The notes: generated from the sequence alone by a model not told the origin. 12,957 bases of DNA from Clostridia bacterium (GCA_045599485.1 JAZRWA010000087.1:1-12957); one strand, 5' to 3'; numbered from the stretch's first letter, positions 1 through 12,957 are shown. Made by a program: numbers and translations.

Positions 1-1580
<1,580 letters not shown>

Positions 1581-1697: not shown

Positions 1698-1719
1698 CAT
1701 TTTGATGCATAAGAGAGGA

Positions 1720-3555
1720 TCAGTAAATGCGTACCTCGAAGATGACCGCATCGGGCGCGCCGTGAGTGGCAAGGGTTTCCACACGCACCGTATCGCAGAG
1801 GATCGATTCAAAGGGGACGACGTTGAGGCGCTGCAGGTTGCCGCGGATGGAGCGGCGGGCGGTCTCTTTGCCGTCCTTCAGCAGCACGACATCGTAGTCG
1901 CGCACCAGCTCGGGCGGGGTGCTCTTGACCTGCTCAGTGGCGCGGACGGAGGACAGCGTCAGCTTGATGGACTTGCTGAGGTTGGGATCGAAAACAAGGC
2001 GCACCTCGCTGACCGCTTTGCATTCGGACAGCTTCAGCGTGAGGGTGCCCTGCGGACCGTCGGCCTTCCAGCAGTTGCTGTTTTCGCCTTCGCTGCGGCT
2101 GACGCCGTTGATGACGTTGACGGCGGGTTCCTTTTCGCTGTCGGCACTGACAGCGGCGGTAAGGGCCAGATCGGCGGGGTCTTCGTTCTTGAAGCCGGGG
2201 ATGTAGCAGTCATCCTTCAAAAGGGTCTGCTGCAGCTCATGGATATCGATGCCGCGGATGGAGGTGCCGCCCGCAAGGGCCAGCGCCGCCGCCGTGCCGA
2301 TGGCCTGACCGCCTACGGCGCAGGTGCCCATCACGCGGGTGGAGGCCATGGCCAGCTTGCTGGCGCTCAGGCTGCGGCCGCTGATGAACAGGTTTTCGGT
2401 ATTTTTGGCCAGATAGCTGCGGTAGGGGATGGTGTACAGGCCGTCAAAGGGATAGATCTCACTGGGCATCCTGTCAAAGTCGAACAGGCCGTGCTCGATG
2501 TGGTTGTCGACCGCCCAGCCGCCGTAGGCCACGGCGTCGTCAAAGACACGGTTCTCCAACAGGTCGTTTTCGTTGAGGATGTAATCGCCTTCCATGCGGC
2601 GGCTCTCGCGCATGCCGGGCAGCATGCCCACCCATTCCAGATCGTAGTTGGCGGCACCGTGATTGCCGCCGTTTTTGATGTGATCCCAGACGCCGTAGAT
2701 GCAGTTGAACAGCTCGTCACGAATGTCCTCAAACTGCTCGATGATGTCGCCCTTATCGCCGTTGATCTCGATCCACCAGTAGCCGTAATCCATGCAGTAG
2801 CTGTCGGTCATCAGGGCGAGCGCCTTTTTATCCACGCTTTCGATGAGCGCGTCGGCTTTTTCTTCCAGCTGCGGCCCGATCAGGTCGGCATGCTTGCGGT
2901 AGCGCAGCTGCTCCTCGGTAAAATGACGGGCGGTTTTGGGCGGGGTGAACGGAACGGGCTCGCCGCGGTTGACGGCCTTGAACAGCAGGGTGTTGCCCAT
3001 GCGGTGATCATCGGGCTCGGCGGGGGCATGCGGCTCGTTGAATTCGGCCTTGCCCTCACTGCCGGTGCGGAAGGGAACGCCCGCAAAATAGGCCAGCGTG
3101 CCGTTGCCCGTGCAGTCGGCAAAAATATCGGCGCTGATGGTCCATTCGGTCTCGGTGGTCATCTGCCAGCAGCGGATGGATTGGACACGGCCGTTTTCAC
3201 ATGCGGCATCGTGCATGGTGGTATTGAGAAAAACGGTCAGATTCTTTTCACGGGAGGCTTCAAACAGTACACGATCCCACGTTGAAAAATTGAAATAGCG
3301 GTTGACGGCCTTGTTGCTGAGCAGGATCTCACGCAGGATGCCGCCCTCCTCGGCGTTGGGCTTGGTCTCATCCGCCGAGGCACCGCAGATGTGCATGCGG
3401 ATCTCGCTGGAAGCGTTGCCGCCGAACACGGGACGCTCCTGAATGAGCGCCGTGCGCGCGCCGTGACGCGCCGCGGCAATGGCGGCGATGAGGCCGTTCA
3501 TGCCGCCGCCCACGACGCAGAACTGAAAGGATGCCTGCTTTTCACGTGCTTTCAT
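1720..3555 (-). CDS. FAD-dependent oxidoreductase (GxGxxG Rossmann N-terminus, FAD_oxidored-like) with a C-terminal beta-sandwich/discoidin-like domain of about 150 aa
   Basis: Uninterrupted 611-aa ORF. The N-terminus FCVVGGGMNGLIAAIAAARHGARTALIQERPVFGGNASSE is a dinucleotide-binding motif. AGGAGGAAGAAGA lies directly upstream of the ATG at 3555. The stop is TGA, followed by a terminator. Substrate is unknown. Confidence 0.8.
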   Translation of the reverse strand: MKAREKQASFQFCVVGGGMNGLIAAIAAARHGARTALIQERPVFGGNASSEIRMHICGASADETKPNAEEGGILREILLSNKAVNRYFNFSTWDRVLFEASREKNLTVFLNTTMHDAACENGRVQSIRCWQMTTETEWTISADIFADCTGNGTLAYFAGVPFRTGSEGKAEFNEPHAPAEPDDHRMGNTLLFKAVNRGEPVPFTPPKTARHFTEEQLRYRKHADLIGPQLEEKADALIESVDKKALALMTDSYCMDYGYWWIEINGDKGDIIEQFEDIRDELFNCIYGVWDHIKNGGNHGAANYDLEWVGMLPGMRESRRMEGDYILNENDLLENRVFDDAVAYGGWAVDNHIEHGLFDFDRMPSEIYPFDGLYTIPYRSYLAKNTENLFISGRSLSASKLAMASTRVMGTCAVGGQAIGTAAALALAGGTSIRGIDIHELQQTLLKDDCYIPGFKNEDPADLALTAAVSADSEKEPAVNVINGVSRSEGENSNCWKADGPQGTLTLKLSECKAVSEVRLVFDPNLSKSIKLTLSSVRATEQVKSTPPELVRDYDVVLLKDGKETARRSIRGNLQRLNVVPFESILCDTVRVETLATHGAPDAVIFEVRIY

Positions 3556-4259
3556 TCTTCTTCCTCCTTGAGCGTGAATCGGGTGGAATCGAGATCGATC
3601 TCCCCGGGCTTTTTGACAAAGATGGCGAATTTGATGGGGACGCCTTCGGCGGCGTATTTCATTTCGTGCTCGGTGAGATAGTTGGGGGTGAAGCCGTCGG
3701 CGTGCAGATCACGGGTGAGGTGGCGGCACTCAAAGCCGCAGACCTCAAAATACCGGAGAGAATCGTTGAACAGGGCGTCATCATCGGTCTTGAACCAGAT
3801 CTCGCCCCCGTCGACCAGAAAGGTGCGGTACTGCATCAGCTGGCGGGGATGGGTTAGGCGGCGCTTGTGGTGCTTCAAGCGTTCCGCCCACGGATTGCAG
3901 AAGCTGATGTAGATCCTTTCCACCCGGTCCTCTGCCGAAAACGCCTTGTATATGTAGCTGATGTCAAACTTGACCAGCTTCAGGTTGCGGACGGGTTCAT
4001 CGCCGTAGGCGGCGGCGACGTTGCGGCGGGCATTGCCCAGTACATCGGCGGAAATGTCAAAGGCGGCATAGTTGACGCTGGGGTTTTCATGCGCCATGAC
4101 CGCGGTGGATACACCCTTGCCGCAGCCCAGTTCGACATGCAGCGGCTACTCTTTTTCAAAGCTCTGCCGCCAATGACCGCAGAGCGTTTCCGGCTCACGG
4201 GTAAAGTACCCGCACTCCGTCAGTTCGGGCAGCGCCCACTTTTTCTTCCGCATATGCAT
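3552..4259 (-). CDS. trmB: tRNA (guanine46-N7)-methyltransferase, full length only if the in-frame TAG at 4146-4148 is translated
   Basis: - strand translation from ATG 4259 (alternative 4253): MHMRKKKWALPELTECGYFTREPETLCGHWRQSFEKE-TAG-PLHVELGCGKGVSTAVMAHENPSVNYAAFDIS...FCNPWAERLKHHKRRLT...FKTDD. This is colinear with TrmB (from memory, B. subtilis ...WNTVFGNDNPIHIEVGTGKG...). The ORF-track product (3552..4097) starts after the SAM-binding GxGxG motif. The promoter lies upstream of 4259. The TGA stop overlaps the next ATG (ATGA). Confidence 0.85.
4146..4148 (-). other. in-frame TAG inside trmB (candidate sense or readthrough codon)
   Basis: Context gaa aaa gag TAG ccg ctg cat. It is 51 nt upstream of, and in frame with, the ORF-track ATG at 4097, and 105 or 111 nt downstream of ATG 4253 or 4259. 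Confidence 0.85.
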
Positions 4260-4291
4260 ATCGGCTTGAATCCCCTTTCATCACTGCCGCC

Positions 4292-4320
4292 AGTATAACA
4301 CAGACAGAGAAATTGTTCAA
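4292..4320 (-). promoter_or_regulatory. sigma-A type promoter for the trmB / FAD-oxidoreductase operon
   Basis: - strand: TTGAAC (4315-4320), 17-nt spacer ending in TGt (extended -10), TATACT (4292-4297). It lies about 30 nt upstream of ATG 4259. Confidence 0.5.
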
Positions 4321-4330
4321 TCATCCGCGA

Positions 4331-4358
4331 ACAAAAAAGCGGCCCCCGAAGGGACCGC
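4331..4358 (-). terminator. rho-independent terminator of the Cys-rich protein gene
   Basis: - strand RNA: GCGGUCCC UUCG GGGGCCGC followed by UUUUUUG. This is an 8-bp GC-rich stem with one G-U pair, a UUCG tetraloop and a U6 tract. It begins about 20 nt after the TAA at 4378-4380, not after the TAG at 4489-4491. Confidence 0.85.
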
Positions 4359-4377
4359 GGTAGAGCAGGAGAAACGA

Positions 4378-5169
4378 TTACTGGGGCGGGTTGCCTTTCC
4401 AGAAATGATTGCAGACGGTGCAGGTAAGGGGATAATAGCCGTTGTGCCATTCGCCGCTGGCATCCTCATAACCTTCGACCCAATCGCCCTAGTTGGCAAA
4501 ATCCCAGCAGCTGCTGACTTCATAGACATTGCCGCAGATGGTGCAGCTGTACTGGTGGCTGTCATCACCAATGTACTTGCAGGTAACATTGCAGCGTTCG
4601 GAGAGCTCTTTACCGCAGCCGGCGCAAACACCGTCATGGCTGTTGTCGCCGTCCCAGCACCAGTCGACCACATGGCCGGCATTGCTGCCGAAGTTGCGGT
4701 AATCCACATAACGGCAGACCTGGCAGATGCGGCGTTCCTCACCCTTGCGGACACAGGTGGCTTCGCGCAGGGTCTTCCATTTGCCCCAGGTATGGACGTG
4801 GACCAGCACACGGCAGGCACCGCAGTCGGTGCAGGAGAATACGTCAAAATCGCCTGCCACTTCGGCGGTCTCGCCAAAGATATGACCGGAAGCGTCATCG
4901 CTGCTCAACAGATCGGCCAGCCCGGACGTGACTTTGGAGGCGACGATGGCAAGAACGTTGCTCTCGTCCACCTTGACATTGACAGTGCCCAGTACGGCAC
5001 CGTTATCGTCCGTCCAGGTCACGGTGGCTTCGCCGGCACCGGCGGGGACCAGCATGGACATGCCCTCGACAGTCACAACGGCTTCATTGGAAGAGGTGAC
5101 GGCGGCCAGGGCAGTGGTGATGCCCATCAGCATCAGGCAGATGAGCAGCGCGGTCAGCATTTTTTTCAT
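4378..5169 (-). CDS. secreted cysteine-rich protein of unknown function (signal peptide plus multiple CxxC motifs); contains an in-frame TAG at 4489-4491
   Basis: ATG at 5169 with GGAGG (5177-5181) 7 nt upstream. MKKMLTALLICLMLMGITTALAAV is a signal peptide. The C-terminal half has about 16 Cys in CxxC, CxxCxxC and CxxxC spacings. The frame stays open for 36 codons after the TAG (GDWVEGYEDASGEWHNGYYPLTCTVCNHFWKGNPPQ, which includes another CxxC) up to TAA 4378-4380 and then the terminator. The track start at 5235 is an upstream in-frame ATG with no RBS. Confidence 0.7.
4489..4491 (-). other. in-frame TAG inside the Cys-rich protein gene (candidate sense or readthrough codon)
   Basis: Context ttt gcc aac TAG ggc gat tgg. 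After it come 36 more open codons, then TAA and a strong terminator. Confidence 0.75.
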
Positions 5170-5206
5170 GAGCAGTCCTCCGTTTTTTAGGATCAAAACT
5201 GTTGAA

Positions 5207-5235
5207 ATTATAGCCATTCGGATGAAAATTGTCAA
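5207..5235 (-). promoter_or_regulatory. consensus sigma-A promoter for the Cys-rich protein gene
   Basis: - strand: TTGACA (5230-5235), 17-nt spacer, TATAAT (5207-5212). It is divergent from the rplJ promoter. Confidence 0.6.
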
Positions 5236-5257
5236 TGATGCGGGCGGAAAAAAGTGC

Positions 5258-5286
5258 TTGACAAAAGGCGTGGGCTGGAGTATGAT
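5258..5286 (+). promoter_or_regulatory. sigma-A promoter for rplJ-rplL
   Basis: TTGACA (5258-5263), 17-nt spacer, TATGAT (5281-5286). Confidence 0.65.
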
Positions 5287-5292
5287 ATTTGC

Positions 5293-5451
5293 GGCTCAAA
5301 AAGAGCCTGTGCCATAGACAGCTGGTACGCCGCAAGGCGTTTGAAGGCGAAAGCCGCCCGCCGAGGCGCAAGCGCATGATTGATTTTATGCCCTTGTGCC
5401 CTGCACAGGGGCTTCTTTTTATCCATGGCCGGACGGAAGGTGAAAACAACA
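5293..5451 (+). promoter_or_regulatory. rplJ 5' leader (probable L10 autoregulatory leader) with a terminator-like attenuator hairpin at 5390-5421
   Basis: About 160 nt of structured, GC-rich untranslated leader lies between the promoter and rplJ. The hairpin is GCCCUUGUGC (5390-5399), loop CCU, GCACAGGGGC (5403-5412), followed by UUCUUUUUA, just before the RBS GGAAGGTGA. This placement matches the L10 leader known upstream of rplJ in Firmicutes. I could not verify the L10-binding motif itself by eye. Confidence 0.5.
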
Positions 5452-5958
5452 ATGAGCAAGAATCAGGAAGCGAAGAAGGTCGTCGTTGCTGAGATTACCG
5501 AAAAGCTGAAGAATTGCCAGAGCATGGTCGTGGTGTCCTACAATGCCATCACCGTCGCCGAGGTGACCGAGCTGCGCAACCAGTTCCGTGCTGCCGGCGT
5601 GGAATACGTCGTGCTGAAGAACACCCTGGTCCGCCGCGCGCTGGACGATATGGGTATCACCGGTCTGGACAGCGTTCTGGAAGGCCCCAGCGCCTTTGCG
5701 TTCGGCATGACCGATGCTGTGGCTCCCGCCAAGATCGTGTACGATTTCATCAACAAGACCAAGGAAGACGGTCGTCTGACTGTCAAGGCCGGTCTGATGG
5801 ACGGCGAAGTGCTGGACGTCAAGCAGGTCAAGGCCCTGTCCGAGCTGCCCTCCAAGGATGTTCTGCTGGCCCGTGTGGTTGGCAGCCTGCAGGCCCCCGT
5901 GGCCAAGCTGGTCTATTTCCTGGAAGCGCTGCGCAAGAAGGAAGCCGGCGAGGAATAA
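5452..5958 (+). CDS. rplJ: 50S ribosomal protein L10
   Basis: MSKNQEAKKVVVAEITEKLKNCQSMVVVSYNAITVAEVTELRNQFRAAGVEYVVLKNTLVRRAL... is a typical L10 sequence. The RBS lies 8 nt upstream of ATG 5452. The stop is TAA. The track start at 5380 lies inside the leader. Confidence 0.95.
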   Translation: MSKNQEAKKVVVAEITEKLKNCQSMVVVSYNAITVAEVTELRNQFRAAGVEYVVLKNTLVRRALDDMGITGLDSVLEGPSAFAFGMTDAVAPAKIVYDFINKTKEDGRLTVKAGLMDGEVLDVKQVKALSELPSKDVLLARVVGSLQAPVAKLVYFLEALRKKEAGEE

Positions 5959-6018
5959 TTTTCCCTGCCGCATAACAACAAAAAATCATCTTTATAATTT
6001 GAATGGAGGAACAATCCA

Positions 6019-6390
6019 ATGACCAATCAGGAGTTTATCGATGCCGTAAAGGGCATGAGCGTTATTGAACTGATGGACCTGGTGAAGGCCCTGGAAGCTG
6101 AGTTCGGCGTTTCCGCCGCTGCTCCCGTTGCTGCTGCCGGCGCTCCCGCCGCTGCTGCTGCTCCCGCCGAAGAGCAGACCGAATTCAACGTGGTTCTGGT
6201 CGATGCCGGCGCCGAGAAGATCAAGGTTATCAAGGTCGTCCGCGAAGTCGTGTCCGGCCTGGGCCTGAAGGAAGCCAAGGACTTCGTCGAGTCCGTTCCG
6301 AAGACCATCAAGGAAGGCGTCTCCAAGGAAGATGCCAAGAAGATCGCCGATCAGTTCGCCGCTGTTGGCGCCAAGTGCGAAATCAAGTAA
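6019..6390 (+). CDS. rplL: 50S ribosomal protein L7/L12
   Basis: [31 protein letters not shown], then an Ala/Pro hinge, then the C-terminal domain [64 protein letters not shown] lies at 6005-6010. The stop is TAA. Confidence 0.95.
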
Positions 6391-6408
6391 TTTTTCGCCT
6401 GACGATCG

Positions 6409-6441
6409 CGACCCGGGAAGCAATTCCCGGGTCGTTTTTTG
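6409..6441 (+). terminator. rho-independent terminator after rplL
   Basis: CGACCCGGGAA (6409-6419), loop GCAA, TTCCCGGGTCG (6424-6434): a perfect 11-bp stem followed by T6 (6435-6440). Confidence 0.9.
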
Positions 6442-6475
6442 TGCGCGGGGGTTCTTTCCCCATGTCCCCTGCTAC

Positions 6476-6504
6476 TTGCACGGAAACGGTGATTTTGGTA
6501 TAAT
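6476..6504 (+). promoter_or_regulatory. sigma-A promoter for the SH3b-NlpC/P60 gene (and probably mnmG)
   Basis: TTGCAC (6476-6481), 17-nt spacer ending in TGg (extended -10), TATAAT (6499-6504). GGAGG at 6524-6528 lies 6 nt before ATG 6535. Confidence 0.55.
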
Positions 6505-6534
6505 AAGAAGTGATTTTTTGCCCGGAGGTAAGGT

Positions 6535-8247
6535 ATGCTGAAACGCGCTTTGGCCTTGACCGCGTTTGTACTGATGATGCTGTGCCTGCTCGCCTGCGCA
6601 TACGGCGAGGAGAGCTTTTTTGCCTATTACGGGGAGGAACGGTGGATTCGCCGTGAGCCGGTCAGCGGCAGCAGCGGCGTGGCCGAATTGCCTGCCAACA
6701 CGGTGGTGAAGCTGACCCCTGTCAATGGCAGCTATGCCGCGGTCAGCTACAACGGCAAGGATGGCTATCTGTATTATCCCGAAGCCAACAGGGTGGACAT
6801 GACCGATCCCATGAGCCCCGACGCTGTGTGGGTGGAGGGCAGCTTTGAGGAAGAGGCCGTTCTTCGCCGCGCACCGCTGAAGAATTCCTCCCGTGTGGCG
6901 AATGTGCCCGCCGGGGAACGTGTGCGGGCAACAGCGGTCAACAGCACCTATCTGTATCTGGAATACGGCGGCAAAAGCGGCTATGCCCTTCGGGAACAGT
7001 TTGCCCAGACCGTTTATCCCTCGGGCATCGTGCTGCCCTACATTGTGTATGCCAAGTCGGAAGTGGTGCTGTACAACGGCCCCTATGCCGATTCCGCTGC
7101 TGTGGGCAGCCTCAAGGTCAACACGCCCACGCTGGCGGTGGGCTATGACGGCGAAAGCCTGCTGGTGCAGCAGGACGGTGCCCTGTATTATGCTCCCGCG
7201 CAGAGCCTGACCGTGCTGGAAGGCAATTATGACACCGAGGATTTTGATGCCGCGCTGGCGTCTGCGGCGGATATTCTGGAATATCCCCTGACCAATGCAC
7301 GGGTGATCGGCAAGGGTAAAAAGAAGGCCGCTGTGACGGTACACGCCTTCTTTGGCGAGTACGCCTATCTGACCTGCGGCAGCTATGTGGGCTATGTGCA
7401 CTACAGCAAGCTGCAGGCAACCAAAAACACCAAAGACGCCATGGATGCCATGCAGCGGCAGATCCTCAAACAAAAGGGCCGCAGGTATCTGGAGATCGCT
7501 TTCCAGATGCTGTAGGAGGATAACCCCATCCTGCAGTATTATAACCGTTACTGCCAGGGCAACGCGGTGGCGCGTTTCCGTTACGGCTGCCCCTATTTCT
7601 ACGGCGGCTATAACGAAAACATCCTGCTCAAGGTGTACCGCACGTGGCAGAACAGCCATTATTATCTGATGAGCAACCGCTATCTGGGCGGCTTTGACTG
7701 CATCGGCTTTGCCCGCTGGGTGCATACCACCGCCGGAGATGCGACGCTGCCCGCCATCAGCAAGGTGCGCTCGGACGGACGCAATAACCTGGTGGATGTC
7801 GGCAATTTGCCCTATGACGAGTGGCAGAATGTGCTGCTGGCCGGCGACTGTGTCAACATCGCCTATTCCGGTGGCGGCTATCACATTGGCATTTATATCG
7901 GCACGCTGCGGGAATTTGGCTTCACCGAGGAGGATGTGGGCGAGCCGCTGGCCCCCTATATGGATCGCCCCCTCATCATTCACTGCGGCATGAACAATTT
8001 CCATACCGAATGGTATGCCAAATACCTGAAGGAAAACGGCCTGTCCTCCGTGACTCCGCCCGATGGCGGCGTGACCATCTCGGTCATGGGCGTGGACTTT
8101 GAAAACTGCCCCTATACCGAAACCATGTGGCAGGGGACGGCTAACGTGAAAACCTTTTATTGGTTTGACCTGATGGGCTATAATCTGACGGTCATCAACC
8201 CCATCGGCAGCAATGTGCGCTGGATGGCGGTCTATCGCAGCAAATAA
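6535..8247 (+). CDS. exported cell-wall hydrolase: signal/lipoprotein peptide, about four SH3b-like repeats and a C-terminal NlpC/P60 cysteine peptidase domain. It is a single ORF only if the TAG at 7513-7515 is translated
   Basis: MLKRALALTAFVLMMLCLLAC is a signal peptide with a lipobox-like LLAC. Repeats resemble VVKLTPVNGSYAAVSYNGKDGYLY and RVRATAVNSTYLYLEYGGKSGYAL. ORFs 6535..7515 and 7567..8247 share a frame, and codons 7516-7566 contain no stop. The NlpC/P60 motifs are YGCPYFYGG, GGFDCIGFARWVH (catalytic Cys) and GGGYHIGIYIG (His). The downstream part has no signal peptide, and its track start (GTG 7567) has no RBS. The gene ends with a TAA TAA double stop at 8245-8250. Confidence 0.75.
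7513..7515 (+). other. in-frame TAG between the SH3b repeats and the NlpC/P60 domain (candidate sense or readthrough codon)
   Basis: Context cag atg ctg TAG gag gat aac. The same frame continues EDNPILQYYNRYCQGNAVARFRYGCPYFYGG. Confidence 0.65.
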
Positions 8248-8268
8248 TAAAGAGGCCTTGAAAAACGA

Positions 8269-10032
8269 ATGTTTGATATAATCGTGATCGGAGCGGGGCA
8301 TGCCGGGTGCGAGGCAGCACTCGCGGCGGCCCGCATGGGTCTGGAAACGCTGCTGTTTACCCTGAATCTGGACGCGGTGGCCCTGATGGCCTGCAATCCC
8401 GCCATCGGCGGCACGGGCAAGGGGCATCTGGTACGCGAGGTGGATGCTTTGGGCGGCGAAATGGGCCGCGCTATTGACGATACCACGCTGCAGAGCCGCA
8501 TGCTGAACATGTCCAAGGGCCCGGCGGTGCACTCGCTGCGTGCGCAGGCGGACAAGCGTGAATATCAAAAGCGCATGAAGCGCGCCCTCTTTGCCCAGGA
8601 ACACCTGACGGTGCGTCAGGGCGAGGTGATGCGCATTGAAACGCTGAACGGCCGCGTCAGCGGCGTGATCACGCGCACCGGCGAGCACATTGCCTGCCGC
8701 GCGGCGGTGGTGTGCACCGGCGTGTATCTGAAGGGGCGTGTGTTTATCGGATAGGCGCAGTGGGAGGCGGGTCCGCAGGGGCTGCTGCCGGCCACGGGGC
8801 TGAGCGAGAGCCTGGCGGATCTGGGCTTTCAGCTGCGCCGCTTCAAGACGGGCACACCGGCGCGTGTGGATGCCAGGTCCATTGATTTTTCTGCCATGGA
8901 GCCGCAGCCGGGCGATGACAGGCCGGTGCCGTTCTCCTTTTTGACTGATCACGCGGTGGAAAACCGCATGATGTGCTACCTGACCTATACCAATCCCGCT
9001 ACGCATCAGATCATTTTGGATAACCTGCACCGGGCGCCCATGTTCAACGGTACCATTCAATCGGCCGGCCCGCGCTATTGCCCTTCCATTGAGAGCAAGA
9101 TCGTGCGCTTTAAGGACAAGGACCGCCATCAGCTGTTTCTGGAGCCCGAGGGCTTCAACGATTCCGAATGGTATGTGCAGGGCATGTCCTCCAGTTTGCC
9201 ATAGGATGTGCAGTGGGCCATGTACCGCACCATTCCCGGGCTGGAGCACTGCATCCTGACCCGTCTGGCGTACGCCATTGAGTATGATTGCATCGACTCG
9301 CTGGCACTGTCGCCCACCCTGGGGGCGCTGCAGGTGCCGGGGTTGTACCTCGCGGGGCAGATCAACGGCACCTCGGGGTATGAGGAGGCCGCGGCACAGG
9401 GCATTCTGGCGGGTATCAATGCCGCGCTGTACGTCAAAGAGCGGGAGCCCTTTGTGCTGACCCGCGATCAGGCGTATATCGGCGTGATGACCGATGACCT
9501 GACCACCAAGGGCACGGATGAGCCCTACCGCATGATGACCAGCCGTGCTGAACACCGGCTTTACCTGCGGCAGGACAATGCCGATCTGCGTTTGACCGCC
9601 CGCGCGCATGCCATCGGGCTGGCGACGGATGAGCGCCTGCGCCGTGCCGAGCAAAAGGCGCGGGAGACCGAGGAGCTGCTGCGGTGGCTCAAGGAAAACC
9701 GCAAGGAGGCGCTGCTGCGCCATCCCGAAAACACGATCGATATGCTTCTGCCCGAGGACGCGCCCTTTGGCGCGGCAGCCCGGGAGGAGGCGGAGATCAG
9801 CGTCAAATACGAGGGCTATCTGGAGCGTGAGCAGGCGGCGGTGCGCAAGGCGCAGGCCATGGAAAACCGTCTGCTGCCGCCCGATACGCCCTATATGGAA
9901 ATTACCGGTCTGCGCATGGAAGCGCGTCAGAAGCTGACGGCACAGCGTCCGCTGTCGCTGGCACAGGCTTCCCGCATTCCCGGGGTATCACCTGCTGACA
10001 TTGCCGTGCTGATGGTATGGCTGCGAAAGTGA
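8269..10032 (+). CDS. mnmG: tRNA uridine 5-carboxymethylaminomethyl modification enzyme MnmG (GidA), intact apart from two in-frame TAG codons (8752-8754, 9202-9204)
   Basis: Three track ORFs (8269..8754, 8866..9204, 9208..10032) are all in frame 1 and together give a colinear Mnm[25 protein letters not shown] ... [60 protein letters not shown] ... [44 protein letters not shown] ... [21 protein letters not shown] ... [20 protein letters not shown]. The stop is TGA. Confidence 0.9.
8752..8754 (+). other. first in-frame TAG inside mnmG
   Basis: Context ttt atc gga TAG gcg cag tgg. The conserved [11 protein letters not shown] motif follows in the same frame, 29 codons later. Confidence 0.9.
9202..9204 (+). 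other. second in-frame TAG inside mnmG
   Basis: Context agt ttg cca TAG gat gtg cag. It sits inside the conserved S-S-L-P-x-D-V-Q ... GLE ... YAIEYD block. Confidence 0.9.
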
Positions 10033-10042
10033 GGGGAAGAGC

Positions 10043-10396
10043 GTGGGACTGAAGGATAAACTGCTGCGGATGCTGCTGACGCCACAAACGGTGCGGCAGA
10101 CGTCGGAAGAACTGGTGCTGCGCTTTGCCGCGGCATCCCGCCTGCCGGAGGAGGCCAAAGGGTATCTGAAGGACGCGGAAGCCATTTTGCGCCTTAAAAA
10201 AGGTATCAGGCAGGTAGAGACCGACCTTGCGACCGGTACGGTGACCCTGCAGCTCGATCAATTGAAGCCGGAGGAAGCGCTCCGTTGGGTCAATCATGTG
10301 CTGGATGCCGTGCCCGGGGCGGTGAGTCAGATCAACGCCGGTCAGAGCAAGGCAAAGGTGATGAGTGACCTGCAAAAGCACTTTGAAAATGAATAA
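10043..10396 (+). CDS. hypothetical small protein (117 aa), possibly a ferredoxin-like/HMA-like fold without metal-binding cysteines
   Basis: GTG start at 10043 with GAGGGG 6 nt upstream. G/C third-position bias matches the neighbouring genes. The stop is TAA. The segment GIRQVETDLATGTVTLQLD resembles the beta-hairpin of HMA domains, but there is no CxxC. I recognise no family. Confidence 0.45.
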   Translation: MGLKDKLLRMLLTPQTVRQTSEELVLRFAAASRLPEEAKGYLKDAEAILRLKKGIRQVETDLATGTVTLQLDQLKPEEALRWVNHVLDAVPGAVSQINAGQSKAKVMSDLQKHFENE

Positions 10397-10421: not shown

Positions 10422-11756
10422 ATGAAACAGCTTCCCGTAACCGCCGAAATGCTGGCCCGCTGGGATGCGGCAAATGCCAATTGCAAGCGCCGCCGTCTGG
10501 CCGAGAGAGCCCTGTCCAAGTGCGACCTGAACGATGTGATGTTCAACAACACCGCCGCCGCCGCGATGCGCCAGAAGTTTTCTCTGGAGCTGGATACGCT
10601 GCCGGTGACCTGTCAGAAACAATCCGGCCGCTGCTGGCTCTTTGCCGCCGCCAATGTGCTGCGTGAGAAAATCGCCAAAGAAAAGAACCTGGCAAACTTT
10701 GAACTTTCTCAGAGCTGGCTTGCTTTCTGGGACAAGTTTGAGCGCGCCAACTATTTCCTGCAGGCCATGATGGATACTGCCGAACTGCCTCATGATGACC
10801 GCACAGTGTCCTTTGTGCTGTCCACCGGCGTGCATGACGGCGGCCAGTGGGATATGTTTGCCAACATCGTCCGCAAGTACGGCATCGTGCCCAAGGATGT
10901 GTTTGATGAGACCTATCAATCCTCCAGCACCCGCCCCATGAACTATTATGTCAACCGCTTCCTCAAGGCCCGTGCCGCTGTGCTGCGCCGCATGGTGCAG
11001 GAAGGCAAGCCCGAGGACGAGGTGCAGGCCGAAAAGGAGAAGGCACTGGAAAAGGTCTATTCCTTCCTGTGCTCCTGCTACGGTGTGCCGCCCAAGAGCT
11101 TCGACTTTGAGTATGTGGACAGGAACAGGGAGTACCACATCGAAACGGGCTACACTCCCGAAAGCTTCCGCGACAAGTATGTGGGCGACCTGCTGGACAA
11201 GACCGTCAGCATCATCAACGCCCCCACCGCGGATAAGCCCTATCACAAGACCTTCACCGTTCGTCTGCTGGGCAACGTGATCGGCGGCAAACCCGTAGTG
11301 CACCTGAACCTGACGATGGATGAATTCAAGCAGGCGATCCTCAACCAGCTGAACGCCGGCAAGGTGGTCTGGTTTGGCAGCGATGTGGGTCATTTCGGTG
11401 AACGCACATTGGGTATCTGGGACAACAACTGCTTTGACGCGGAGCTGGTGACCGGCATGGATCTGAGCATCAGCAAGGCGGACGCGCTGGAGATGGGTCT
11501 TTCTGCCATGAACCACGCCATGGTGCTGACCGGCGTCAACATGAAGGATGGCAAGCCCGACCGCTGGCGCATTGAAAACAGCTGGGGCGATGACAAGGGC
11601 CAGAAGGGCTATTACATCTGCTCTGATGACTGGTTCAACCAGTATGTGTATCAGGCGGCGGTCGAGAGAGAATACCTGGGTGATCTGGCCAAGTATGCCG
11701 ACGAGACGCCCGTTGAGCTGGCTCCCTGGGATCCCATGGGCACGCTGGCAGACTGA
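10422..11756 (+). CDS. pepC: aminopeptidase C (bleomycin-hydrolase-like cysteine peptidase, family C1B)
   Basis: MKQLPVTAEMLARWDAANANCKRRRLAERAL... with the catalytic block QKQSGRCWLFAAANVLR, His in MNHAMVLTGV and Asn/Trp in ENSWGDDKGQKGYY. The AGAAAGGA RBS sits about 9 nt before ATG 10422; the in-frame ATG at 10416 is too close to the RBS, and the track start 10365 overlaps the previous ORF. The stop is TGA. Confidence 0.85.
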   Translation: MKQLPVTAEMLARWDAANANCKRRRLAERALSKCDLNDVMFNNTAAAAMRQKFSLELDTLPVTCQKQSGRCWLFAAANVLREKIAKEKNLANFELSQSWLAFWDKFERANYFLQAMMDTAELPHDDRTVSFVLSTGVHDGGQWDMFANIVRKYGIVPKDVFDETYQSSSTRPMNYYVNRFLKARAAVLRRMVQEGKPEDEVQAEKEKALEKVYSFLCSCYGVPPKSFDFEYVDRNREYHIETGYTPESFRDKYVGDLLDKTVSIINAPTADKPYHKTFTVRLLGNVIGGKPVVHLNLTMDEFKQAILNQLNAGKVVWFGSDVGHFGERTLGIWDNNCFDAELVTGMDLSISKADALEMGLSAMNHAMVLTGVNMKDGKPDRWRIENSWGDDKGQKGYYICSDDWFNQYVYQAAVEREYLGDLAKYADETPVELAPWDPMGTLAD

Positions 11757-11884: not shown

Positions 11885-12658
11885 ATGAGGATCGTGATCA
11901 AGATCGGCACCTCGACCCTGACTCACAAAACGGGGCATCTCAACATCCGTCAGGTGGAAAAGCTGTGCAAGGTGGTCAGTGATTTAAAAAACGCGGGGCA
12001 TGAGCCGGTGTTGGTGTCTTCCGGTGCCATTGGCATGGGCGTGGGCAAGCTGTCGCTGGCGGGACGTCCCTCTGACATGCCCACCAAGCAGGCGGCGGCG
12101 GCCGTGGGTCAGTGCGAACTGATGTATATTTATGATAAACAGTTTTCCGAATACAATCATGTGGTGGCGCAGATCCTTTTGACAGGGGACGACCTCGACC
12201 ATGAGGATCGGCGCAGGAACTTTGAAAACACCCTGTTCCGCCTGCTGGAGCTGGGGGCGCTGCCCATTGTGAATGAAAACGATACCATCGCCACGCAGGA
12301 GATTGCCGTGGGCGATAACGACACGCTGGGGGCTATTGTGGCGGCATGTGTCAAGGCCGATCTGCTGGTGCTGCTCAGTGATATCGATGGGCTGTATACC
12401 GCCGATCCGCGCAGGGACGCGGAGGCGAGGTTGATCTCCGTGGTGGAAGAAGTGACGCCGGAGATCTTGGCTCTGGCGGGCGGCAAGGGCTCGGCGCTTG
12501 GCACGGGCGGCATGCAGACCAAGCTGCATGCGGCGAAAATTGCCGGGGCCGCGGGCGTGGACATGATCATCACCAACGGTACGCGTCCGGAAGAACTGTA
12601 TGATATTGTGGAAGGGCGCCCGGTGGGAACGCTCTTTAAGGGGTGCAAAAACAAATGA
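11885..12658 (+). CDS. proB: glutamate 5-kinase (short form without a PUA domain)
   Basis: MRIVIKIGTSTLTHKTGHLNIRQVEKLCKVVSDLKNAGHEPVLVSSGAIGMG...IVNENDTIATQEIAVGDNDTLGA...LLSDIDGLYTADPR...GTGGMQTKLHAAKIA. The purine-rich stretch GGAAAGCGAAGGAAAAA lies upstream. The track start 11768 is in the promoter region. The TGA stop overlaps the proA ATG (ATGA). Confidence 0.9.
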   Translation: MRIVIKIGTSTLTHKTGHLNIRQVEKLCKVVSDLKNAGHEPVLVSSGAIGMGVGKLSLAGRPSDMPTKQAAAAVGQCELMYIYDKQFSEYNHVVAQILLTGDDLDHEDRRRNFENTLFRLLELGALPIVNENDTIATQEIAVGDNDTLGAIVAACVKADLLVLLSDIDGLYTADPRRDAEARLISVVEEVTPEILALAGGKGSALGTGGMQTKLHAAKIAGAAGVDMIITNGTRPEELYDIVEGRPVGTLFKGCKNK

Positions 12659-12957
12659 CCACATTGGAAATGCTGAAAAGCGCCCGCGCGGTGCGTGCGG
12701 TCGCGGCGGCGTTGGATACGGAGCGCAAGAATCAGGCCCTGGAGGCCATGGCCGCGGCACTGGAAAGGGAGACCGCGCAGATCCTGGCGGCCAACATGCA
12801 GGATGTGACAGCGGCACAGGGCACCATGAGCGCTTCGCTGCTCGACCGTTTGCAGTTGAATGAAAGCCGCATCAAGGCGATGGCGGAGGGCATCCGTCAG
12901 GTGGCGGCGCTGCCGGACCCGGTGGGCAAGGCAGTGACGCGCACGGTGCGCCCCAAC
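12655..12957 (+). CDS. proA: gamma-glutamyl phosphate reductase, first 101 codons; continues beyond the right window edge
   Basis: ATG at 12655 overlaps the proB stop. The frame is open to the window end: MTTLEMLKSARAVRAVAAALDTERKNQALEAMAAALERETAQILAANMQDVTAAQ...LLDRLQLNESRIKAMAEGIRQVAALPDPVG, a typical ProA N-terminus. It is not in the ORF track because no stop lies in the window. Confidence 0.9.
   Translation, partial: MTTLEMLKSARAVRAVAAALDTERKNQALEAMAAALERETAQILAANMQDVTAAQGTMSASLLDRLQLNESRIKAMAEGIRQVAALPDPVGKAVTRTVRPN

Follow-up and report, generated by a model that had tools for sequence, protein, structure and literature searches.

Changes of the genetic code described so far in bacteria all involve UGA, judging by the literature we searched, the Codetta paper included: UGA is read as Trp under translation table 4 (Mycoplasmatota, some endosymbionts and Eggerthellaceae) and as Gly under table 25 (Absconditabacteria and Gracilibacteria). 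Bacterial UAG is a stop codon outside a few pyrrolysine (Pyl) enzymes. Here we describe a stretch of DNA from a Clostridia bacterium (GCA_045599485.1, JAZRWA010000087.1:1-12957; its full length of 12,957 nt is called ‘the window’ below) in which four genes, trmB, mnmG, a gene for a Cys-rich secreted protein and a gene for an SH3b-NlpC/P60 peptidase, carry five in-frame TAG codons that are likely to be translated. In the searched literature we met with no bacterial lineage whose housekeeping genes contain in-frame TAG; the original prediction likewise stated that constitutive decoding of UAG is not a recognized code in bacteria. As in the UGA reassignments, the housekeeping genes of one monophyletic lineage of bacteria contain a stop codon in frame, and a cognate tRNA together with loss of a release factor would be expected. 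Unlike in those cases, the codon is UAG, the release factor at stake is release factor 1 (RF1) rather than release factor 2 (RF2), the genome is neither AT-rich nor reduced (GC content in the window is 56-62%) and in-frame TAG is rare (five in 3,982 codons, ~1.3 per 1,000).

UAG is known as a sense codon in some phages, in some eukaryotes, in organelles and, since 2024-25, as pyrrolysine in some archaea; in archaeal Genetic Code 34 all UAG codons stand for pyrrolysine (Kivenson et al., bioRxiv 10.1101/2024.09.30.615893). Code 34 resembles the case presented here in that UAG is (here, would be) a sense codon throughout the genome of a prokaryote, the genome is poor in TAG, the TAGs are situated in ordinary genes and little coding density is lost under table 11. 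It differs in being archaeal, dependent on pyl genes and tied to methylamine methanogenesis, and it was not observed in bacteria (Kivenson et al.); moreover, the TAG sites described below favor an acidic residue. Gut phages with TAG-to-Gln recoding (code 15-like; crAss-like, Lak and other phages) translate TAG by means of a suppressor tRNA(CUA) and come from the same gut and rumen habitats, but the window is chromosomal, with genes for ribosomal proteins, PFOR (pyruvate:ferredoxin oxidoreductase), proBA and tRNA modification. Phage-type recoding was rejected as an explanation, since the synteny of the window is shared with contigs of bacterial metagenome-assembled genomes (MAGs) and Gln is aligned at only one of six TAG sites (the five in the window and one in a relative). 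Among eukaryotes, UAR-to-Glu and UAR-to-Gln codes (Blastocrithidia, ciliates and others) read UAG as Glu or Gln, and ambiguous or context-dependent stops exist there as well; these codes are nuclear, involve eRF1 and usually shift UAA and UAG together, whereas UAA is still the commonest stop codon in relatives of the clade to which the window belongs. Finally, E. coli strains (supE, supF and C321.deltaA) demonstrate that a single anticodon change makes a UAG-reading tRNA and that cells can do without RF1 when few genes end in TAG; these amber suppressors and RF1-free strains, however, come from engineering or the laboratory, unlike the natural clade considered here.

With only TAA and TGA counted as stops, the four genes occupy continuous open frames: trmB in 3552-4277 (minus strand), the Cys-rich gene in 4378-5295 (minus strand), the SH3-NlpC/P60 gene in 6532-8247 (plus strand) and mnmG in 8251-10032 (plus strand). 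The sole interruptions of these frames are TAGs, at positions 4146, 4489, 7513, 8752 and 9202. Relatives for comparison were found via exact look-up of the RplL sequence, which yielded contigs ~91% identical to the window in nucleotides: L001 (NCBI MAG GCA_024404275.1), L002 (Logan SRR27361835), L003 (from ENA) and further, shorter contigs. Together, ~40 kb of sequence of the clade were covered. Two species make up the clade: that of the window and a sister, ~10% divergent from it, within which identity is 95-98%.

The mnmG gene (8269-10032, plus strand; 587 codons, stop TGA), which acts in tRNA uridine-5-carboxymethylaminomethyl synthesis, contains two of the TAGs. One is codon 162 (8752-8754), which is GAG (Glu) in L001, L002 and L003, and the other is codon 312 (9202-9204), GAG (Glu) in the sister species. 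A single continuous match to the Pfam GIDA domain (residues 3-392, E = 1e-161) crosses both of them and is complemented by a match to SAM_GIDA_C. The codon alignment extends over 587/587 codons with TAG as the sole interruption.

The trmB gene (3552-4259, minus strand; 235 codons, stop TGA) encodes the tRNA m7G46 methyltransferase and has TAG as codon 38 (4146-4148, minus strand), where the sister species has CAG (Gln). The match to Pfam Methyltransf_4 (6e-28) begins at residue 38, i.e. at the TAG position. A typical N-terminus, MRKKKWA..., precedes the TAG, and the SAM motif ELGCGKG follows just after it, ahead of any ATG. Residues 1-210 match the TrmB structures 7nyb, 2fca and 1yzh in PDB with E-values from 1e-33 to 1e-34.

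In the gene of the secreted SH3b-NlpC/P60 (C40) peptidase (6535-8247, plus strand; 570 codons, stop TAA) the TAG is codon 327 (7513-7515; TAG327 below). The encoded protein has a signal-peptide-like N-terminus, and the Pfam domains SH3_3 and NLPC_P60 lie upstream and downstream of the TAG, respectively. All 570 of its 570 residues were aligned by tblastn with three relatives, the TAG being again the only interruption. The sister species has TAG at this codon too, which makes it the oldest of the five sites and one fixed in the clade.

The gene of the Cys-rich secreted repeat protein (4378-5169, minus strand; 263 codons, stop TAA) has TAG as codon 227 (4489-4491, minus strand), which is TGG (Trp) in the sister species. 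No Pfam domain matched this protein; its gene was recognized as coding by the coding-frame classifier described below. The protein consists of modules H-x-[FWY]-G-x-W...C..G...C..C, and the TAG occupies the aromatic position of a module. Such modules are present in 2-26 copies in large proteins (~400-5,000 aa, giant surface proteins) forming 2,441 representative clusters.

Thus, five TAGs lie in frame, inside domains and flanked by sequence under selection (see below), and one of them is fixed across two species. The four genes contain no in-frame TAA, no in-frame TGA and no indels. Both the presence of the five TAGs in these genes and the immediate resumption of recognizable protein sequence in the same frame, as originally proposed, were confirmed by the TAA/TGA-only frames, the end-to-end alignments and the domain matches.

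Codon comparisons indicate that the TAG-bearing genes are alive, with purifying selection persisting downstream of the TAGs. The mnmG product of the window is 98.5% identical in amino acids to that of L002; of the codon differences, 127 are synonymous and 9, among them the two TAGs, non-synonymous. Split at the TAGs, the synonymous and non-synonymous counts are 35 and 3 before the first TAG, 37 and 4 between the TAGs, and 55 and 0 after the second TAG, i.e. 92 versus 4 downstream of the first TAG. When changes were polarized with outgroups, the window branch of mnmG had 40 synonymous changes versus 3 replacements other than the TAGs. Past the TAG of trmB we counted 42 synonymous versus 11 non-synonymous differences; in the catalytic half of the NlpC/P60 gene, 42-51 synonymous and 13-16 non-synonymous ones. 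The Cys-rich protein is fast-evolving, and the 36 codons that could be aligned past its TAG have four differences of each kind. Decay of these genes into pseudogenes was therefore rejected: the non-synonymous/synonymous ratio stays low, and lesions other than TAG are missing.

TAG327 is present in 7/7 contigs from seven samples (the window, L001, L002, L003, L174, L175 and L176); nucleotide identity between the window and the remaining six is ~90%. In the 90% identity cluster of the NlpC/P60 protein, all eight unbroken N-terminal fragments (8/8) are exactly 326 aa long. Outside the clade, 40/40 homologues are single unsplit proteins (38 of 568-601 aa and two shorter, 463-601 aa overall), with Glu (31) or Asp (9) at the column of TAG327. 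The unsplit homologues and the invariantly acidic column make it unlikely that the clade produces a terminated SH3 protein plus a leaderless catalytic fragment. In-frame TAG thus characterizes the clade rather than a single assembly. Its distribution, as judged from the aligned sequences, is phylogenetically coherent, with TAG327 in both species and Glu or Asp in all outgroups. A further TAG was found in L002 at codon 99 of the NlpC/P60 gene (L002 position 3941), where other clade members have TGG.

The clade is rare, as matches to it in GTDB and in metagenomes were weak. When GTDB was scanned with the C-terminus of MnmG, all matches were rumen and gut MAGs of Christensenellales and Clostridia, with amino-acid identity of at most 82%; in a metagenome scan with ProB the closest match was at most 80% identical. 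For pepC we found one clade cluster, whose contigs, the window excepted, do not exceed 3.4 kb.

For a control screen, 167 orthologues served to train a codon-usage classifier with six phases, which assigned all genes of the window to the sense phase and long antisense open reading frames (ORFs) to the antisense phase. Along with homology spanning the TAG, it was applied to ~2.05 Mb of sequence in 174 loci. Only two true in-frame TAGs were detected outside the clade, in ~2 Mb of 170 related loci, both on contigs with ~3x coverage (L105 and L166); other candidates turned out to be adjacent genes in the same frame. The TAG in L105 (4282, minus strand) lies in a ParA gene, where a 97%-identical contig has GAG, and the one in L166 (6878, plus strand) lies in the ABC-transporter signature motif LSGGQQ[Q]. 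Either could be a true nonsense allele or an error of sequencing. In-frame TAGs are several hundred times denser in the window than in related loci.

The five TAGs of the window have no extended sequence context in common. Systematic base-calling error or error at a methylation motif was rejected on these grounds, as well as by the recurrence of TAG327 in seven independent assemblies. We observed G as the +4 base at five of six in-frame TAGs (the five in the window and L002 3941), while G makes up 38.6% of codon first bases; this excess (P ~0.04) may be a context effect or chance.

Mutational accounting was done for the window branch. The 3,982 codons offer 658 single-base paths to TAG, and neutral divergence on this branch is ~0.16 per site; hence neutrality of such changes would predict ~35 TAG, 18 TAA and 7 TGA codons, and lethality would predict none. 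Four new TAGs were observed, with no TAA and no TGA. Path counts and divergence thus suggest that changes creating TAG have been tolerated about as readily as ordinary missense changes, and those creating TAA or TGA not at all.

We consider it likely that the TAGs are translated in this narrow clade of Christensenellales (uncultured gut or rumen Clostridia). That UAG behaves as a sense codon, the core of the original prediction, is supported by the selection downstream of the TAGs, the conservation of TAG327 across species and samples, and the controls of the screen. In the window's species and its sister (GCA_024404275.1 and the Logan and ENA contigs) the ribosome would insert an amino acid at UAG rather than terminate. 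The mechanism would most likely comprise a dedicated tRNA with anticodon CUA and an RF1 that has been lost or weakened, so that termination is left to RF2 at UAA and UGA. The rare use of TAG as a terminator in the ancestor (~5% of stops) would ease the change by making loss of RF1 cheap. A plausible route is a derivative of tRNA-Glu or tRNA-Gln charged by a non-discriminating glutamyl-tRNA synthetase (GluRS). In Clostridia generally, a non-discriminating GluRS charges both tRNA-Glu and tRNA-Gln, accepting either C or G as anticodon base 36. With ~0.3-1.3 TAGs per 1,000 codons and sister lineages on the standard code, the clade would represent an early stage in the capture of a nearly unused amber codon. 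Decoding by a dedicated tRNA as a lineage-wide reassignment of UAG seems to us probable, if with less assurance than translation as such; the tRNA, the status of RF1, the identity of the amino acid, the genome-wide extent of the reassignment and its completeness are inferences.

Several observations weigh against UAG being a reassigned sense codon. No tRNA genes at all, hence no tRNA(CUA), were found in the window and the clade contigs scanned; across 46 clade and relative loci tRNA(CUA) was not found either, tRNA genes being few overall. Four of the five TAGs in the window (4146, 4489, 8752 and 9202) are known from a single assembly only, and in the sister species TAG density is low, with 1-2 TAGs per 2,400-3,300 codons. 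In the nearest outgroup with data (L093, whose PFOR gene is 83% identical in nucleotides) an EamA gene ends in an apparently genuine TAG; thus the change, if real, would be recent and limited to a narrow clade. The residues aligned at the TAG sites, six sites only, vary from site to site (E, E, E, Q, W and W). Also, all six sites are one mutation away from TAG, as random nonsense hits would be, a resemblance that the authors of Codetta warn of.

Two statistical arguments made originally also lose weight. The count of zero TAGs among the ten visible gene ends was reproduced: TGA ends the genes of the FAD oxidoreductase, trmB, mnmG, pepC and proB, while TAA ends those of the Cys-rich protein, rplJ, rplL, NlpC and a small ORF. 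Its value as an argument did not survive. In relatives, 1,445 stops identified with the classifier comprised 701 TAA, 673 TGA and 71 TAG (4.9%), so ~0.5 TAG would be expected among ten gene ends, and none is seen with P ~0.6. The chance that five random nonsense mutations would all be TAG had been put at (1/3)^5, below 1%, which was an overstatement. Of the single-base nonsense paths here, 58-63% lead to TAG, because GAG, CAG, AAG and TGG are abundant and the codons that generate TAA or TGA (GAA, CAA and TGA-generating ones) are rarer; the recomputed P for five of five is 0.06-0.10.

As for the amino acid, the column of mnmG codon 162 has Glu in 64/83 orthologues and that of codon 312 has Glu in 59/83; together with the acidic column of TAG327 these are the conserved columns, where Gln is found in 1/83, 6/83 and 0/40 sequences. 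Codon 38 of trmB corresponds to Gln in the sister species and to Asn, Asn and Ala in the PDB homologues. Codon 99 of the NlpC/P60 gene is Trp in the clade and Thr, Ser or Arg in 35/40 outgroups. Codon 227 of the Cys-rich gene is Trp in relatives, and Glu occurs at this aromatic position in 4.6% of modules. All sites in constrained contexts are acidic, and the two Trp sites lie in weakly constrained ones. If a single amino acid is inserted, the alignments make Glu the best guess, with Gln and Trp fitting worse. A code in which UAG specifically means Glu is nonetheless a tentative proposal that we would put somewhat short of an even chance. The original prediction held that the amino acid could not be determined from the window; the comparisons instead narrow the choice in part, with Glu favored as a best guess.

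The alternative that survives best is that UAG is not decoded, the four TAGs of the window other than TAG327 standing in dispensable genes as assembly errors, population variants or nonsense mutations of recent origin, and the NlpC/P60 gene being truly split into an SH3 protein that ends at the TAG and a separately initiated catalytic domain. Genes such as mnmG, trmB and those of secreted proteins are non-essential in model bacteria. Every site is a single-base neighbor of a sense codon of relatives, TAG is the likeliest nonsense product here (58-63%), and sporadic in-frame TAGs do occur on other low-coverage contigs. Yet five independent events within 5.1 kb would be needed, with no relaxation of selection (92 versus 4 in mnmG), no TAA, TGA or indel lesions, and a TAG density exceeding that of related loci several hundred-fold. 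With respect to the split, the sequence TAGGAGGAT (7513-7521, plus strand) has the TAG overlapping a perfect Shine-Dalgarno-like AGGAGG, a possible ribosome-binding site. However, outgroups carry GGAGGA there too, derived from Glu-Glu/Asp codons, and a separately initiated catalytic domain would have no signal peptide. The 17 codons from the TAG to the next start candidate are conserved (three synonymous and no non-synonymous differences at variable columns) as part of a block conserved in the 40 unsplit homologues, and this TAG was recovered in independent Illumina-type assemblies from seven samples. A split with re-initiation at AGGAGG is unlikely, and absence of decoding as a whole is, in our assessment, unlikely as well.

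According to another explanation, RF1 was lost or crippled with no dedicated tRNA having evolved, and UAG is effectively left without an assignment, its reading being a slow process carried out by near-cognate tRNAs (Gln, Glu, Trp, Tyr and Lys); in-frame TAGs would then be mildly deleterious, missense-like variants drifting in. E. coli engineered to lack RF1 indeed reads UAG by near-cognate tRNAs. The source codons are a mixture of single-step neighbors (GAG three times, TGG twice and CAG once), in-frame TAGs are sparse, and the highly expressed genes of PFOR, rplJ and rplL contain none. Against this, the maintenance of TAG327 on an invariantly acidic column through ~10% divergence would be easier to understand with defined, efficient decoding, and two TAGs in the constrained mnmG gene would compound stalling. 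To our knowledge, loss of RF1 alone has no natural precedent, and we regard it as quite improbable.

Much of the same evidence bears on leaky suppression, where RF1 would be intact, TAG would end some genes and a moderately efficient suppressor tRNA would provide sufficient read-through. The change appears young and narrow, the outgroup L093 keeps a TAG terminator, and both the low density of TAG and its absence from highly expressed genes would be expected; ambiguous intermediates are, furthermore, the favored model for other reassignments. Two TAGs in mnmG, on the other hand, would square the loss of product, and no true TAG terminator is seen among the ten visible gene ends, where only ~0.5 is expected. 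We assess this possibility as no less doubtful than loss of RF1 alone.

A pyrrolysine code, with pylTSBCD expressed constitutively and every UAG read as Pyl as a bacterial counterpart of Code 34, is very unlikely: genome-wide use of UAG for Pyl does exist in archaea, where it arose sporadically, TAG-poor genomes would be the expected starting point and heterogeneous residues aligned at TAG sites are typical, but three of the six sites are conserved as acidic (one invariantly Glu or Asp), which hardly suits a bulky derivative of lysine; no site derives from AAG, which provides 15-25% of mutational paths to TAG; the authors of Code 34 report none in bacteria; a gut survey of genes for the Pyl-containing methylamine methyltransferase MttB makes no mention of Christensenellales; and no PYLIS-like structure consistently follows the TAGs. 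The ~40 kb of clade sequence contain none of pylT, pylS and pylBCD and no genes of Pyl-dependent methyltransferases.

RNA structure downstream of the TAGs was assessed for all five sites, with z-scores of 0.04, 1.2, -3.0, -3.4 and -0.85. Strong folds were predicted in the 120 nt after the NlpC TAG (7513-7632, plus strand; z = -3.0) and after the first TAG of mnmG (8752-8871, plus strand; z = -3.4). The latter includes an 86-nt hairpin that begins 2 nt past the TAG and is present in GAG-bearing relatives as well; the former is found in the window, L001 and L002 and is missing in L003. A PYLIS-like or other element promoting read-through was rejected, as the two structured sites are either not TAG-specific or not conserved and three sites are unstructured; a PYLIS, however, is not present in every Pyl gene either.

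The remaining genes of the window have no in-frame TAG. On the minus strand these are the N-terminal 496 codons of the PFOR gene (1-1488), recognized by its translation and by homologues annotated as PFOR, and the gene of a FAD-dependent oxidoreductase (1720-3555, stop TGA; Pfam FAD_oxidored, 2e-89). The plus strand contains rplJ (5452-5958) and rplL (6019-6390), both with stop TAA, identified by Pfam Ribosomal_L10, Ribosomal_L12 and Ribosomal_L12_N in agreement with the gene calls of relatives. Downstream of mnmG, also on the plus strand, there are a small ORF known from its translation (10043-10396, stop TAA), pepC (10425-11756, stop TGA; Pfam Peptidase_C1_2, 7e-162), proB (11885-12658, stop TGA; Pfam AA_kinase, 1e-44) and, seen in translation after proB and up to position 12957, the start of proA. 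An Rfam scan of the window gave no family match. The rplJ-rplL pair is isolated (5380-6390), being flanked by the Cys-rich and NlpC/P60 genes and not by rplKA and rpoBC, and no L10-leader RNA family was detected upstream of it.

Most genes of the window differ from those of the sister species (L001) by ~0.2 synonymous changes per codon, compared with 0.05 in the PFOR gene, 0.08 in rplJ and 0.008 in rplL. The PFOR gene is 98% identical to that of L001 (99.4% in amino acids) versus ~91% elsewhere. Recombination of the PFOR gene was considered and rejected, as low synonymous divergence is common to rplJ and rplL; strong constraint on the codon usage of highly expressed genes accounts for it better. 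Truncated PFOR genes on long contigs of relatives (P0021 in L091 and P0083 in L092) were examined as candidate recoding cases and proved to be frameshifted assemblies. The frameshifts, in 10001-13950 of L091 (a 618-kb contig) and 10001-13600 of L092 (a 739-kb contig), look like indel errors. In the protein database, many top PFOR matches are truncated by such frameshifts or by contig ends.

Long antisense ORFs were observed opposite several genes. An open frame of 1,332 codons (5992-9987, minus strand) runs opposite rplL, the NlpC/P60 gene and mnmG, and holds an ORF of 1,083 aa starting with ATG (6472-9723), which the classifier assigned to the antisense phase. Other antisense ORFs extend over the PFOR gene (82-1521, plus strand) and the FAD oxidoreductase gene (1702-3285, plus strand). 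They result from codon bias: the 3,982 sense codons include TTA once, TCA twice and CTA once.

Annotation under table 11 splits or truncates genes in MAGs of this clade; the NlpC/P60 protein, for example, has been deposited as fragments of 326 and 226 aa. Predictors of translation tables that rely on coding density would miss TAG decoding as rare as this. It is conceivable, though we hold it below even odds, that the clade uses the first bacterial code with UAG as a sense codon, in which amber was captured for glutamate via a tRNA(CUA) and a non-discriminating GluRS after RF1 was lost or disabled. If true, UAG decoding would exist in a Firmicute of the gut and rumen that is of the free-living type and of normal GC content, and RF1-dependent termination could be given up in nature, making the clade a natural counterpart of the engineered RF1-free E. 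coli. It would offer a new orthogonal context of tRNA and synthetase for genetic code expansion, and would bear on whether amber-recoded gut phages have hosts with the same code. As a young case accompanied by sisters on the standard code, the clade would be a testbed for the codon-capture and ambiguous-intermediate models of code change.

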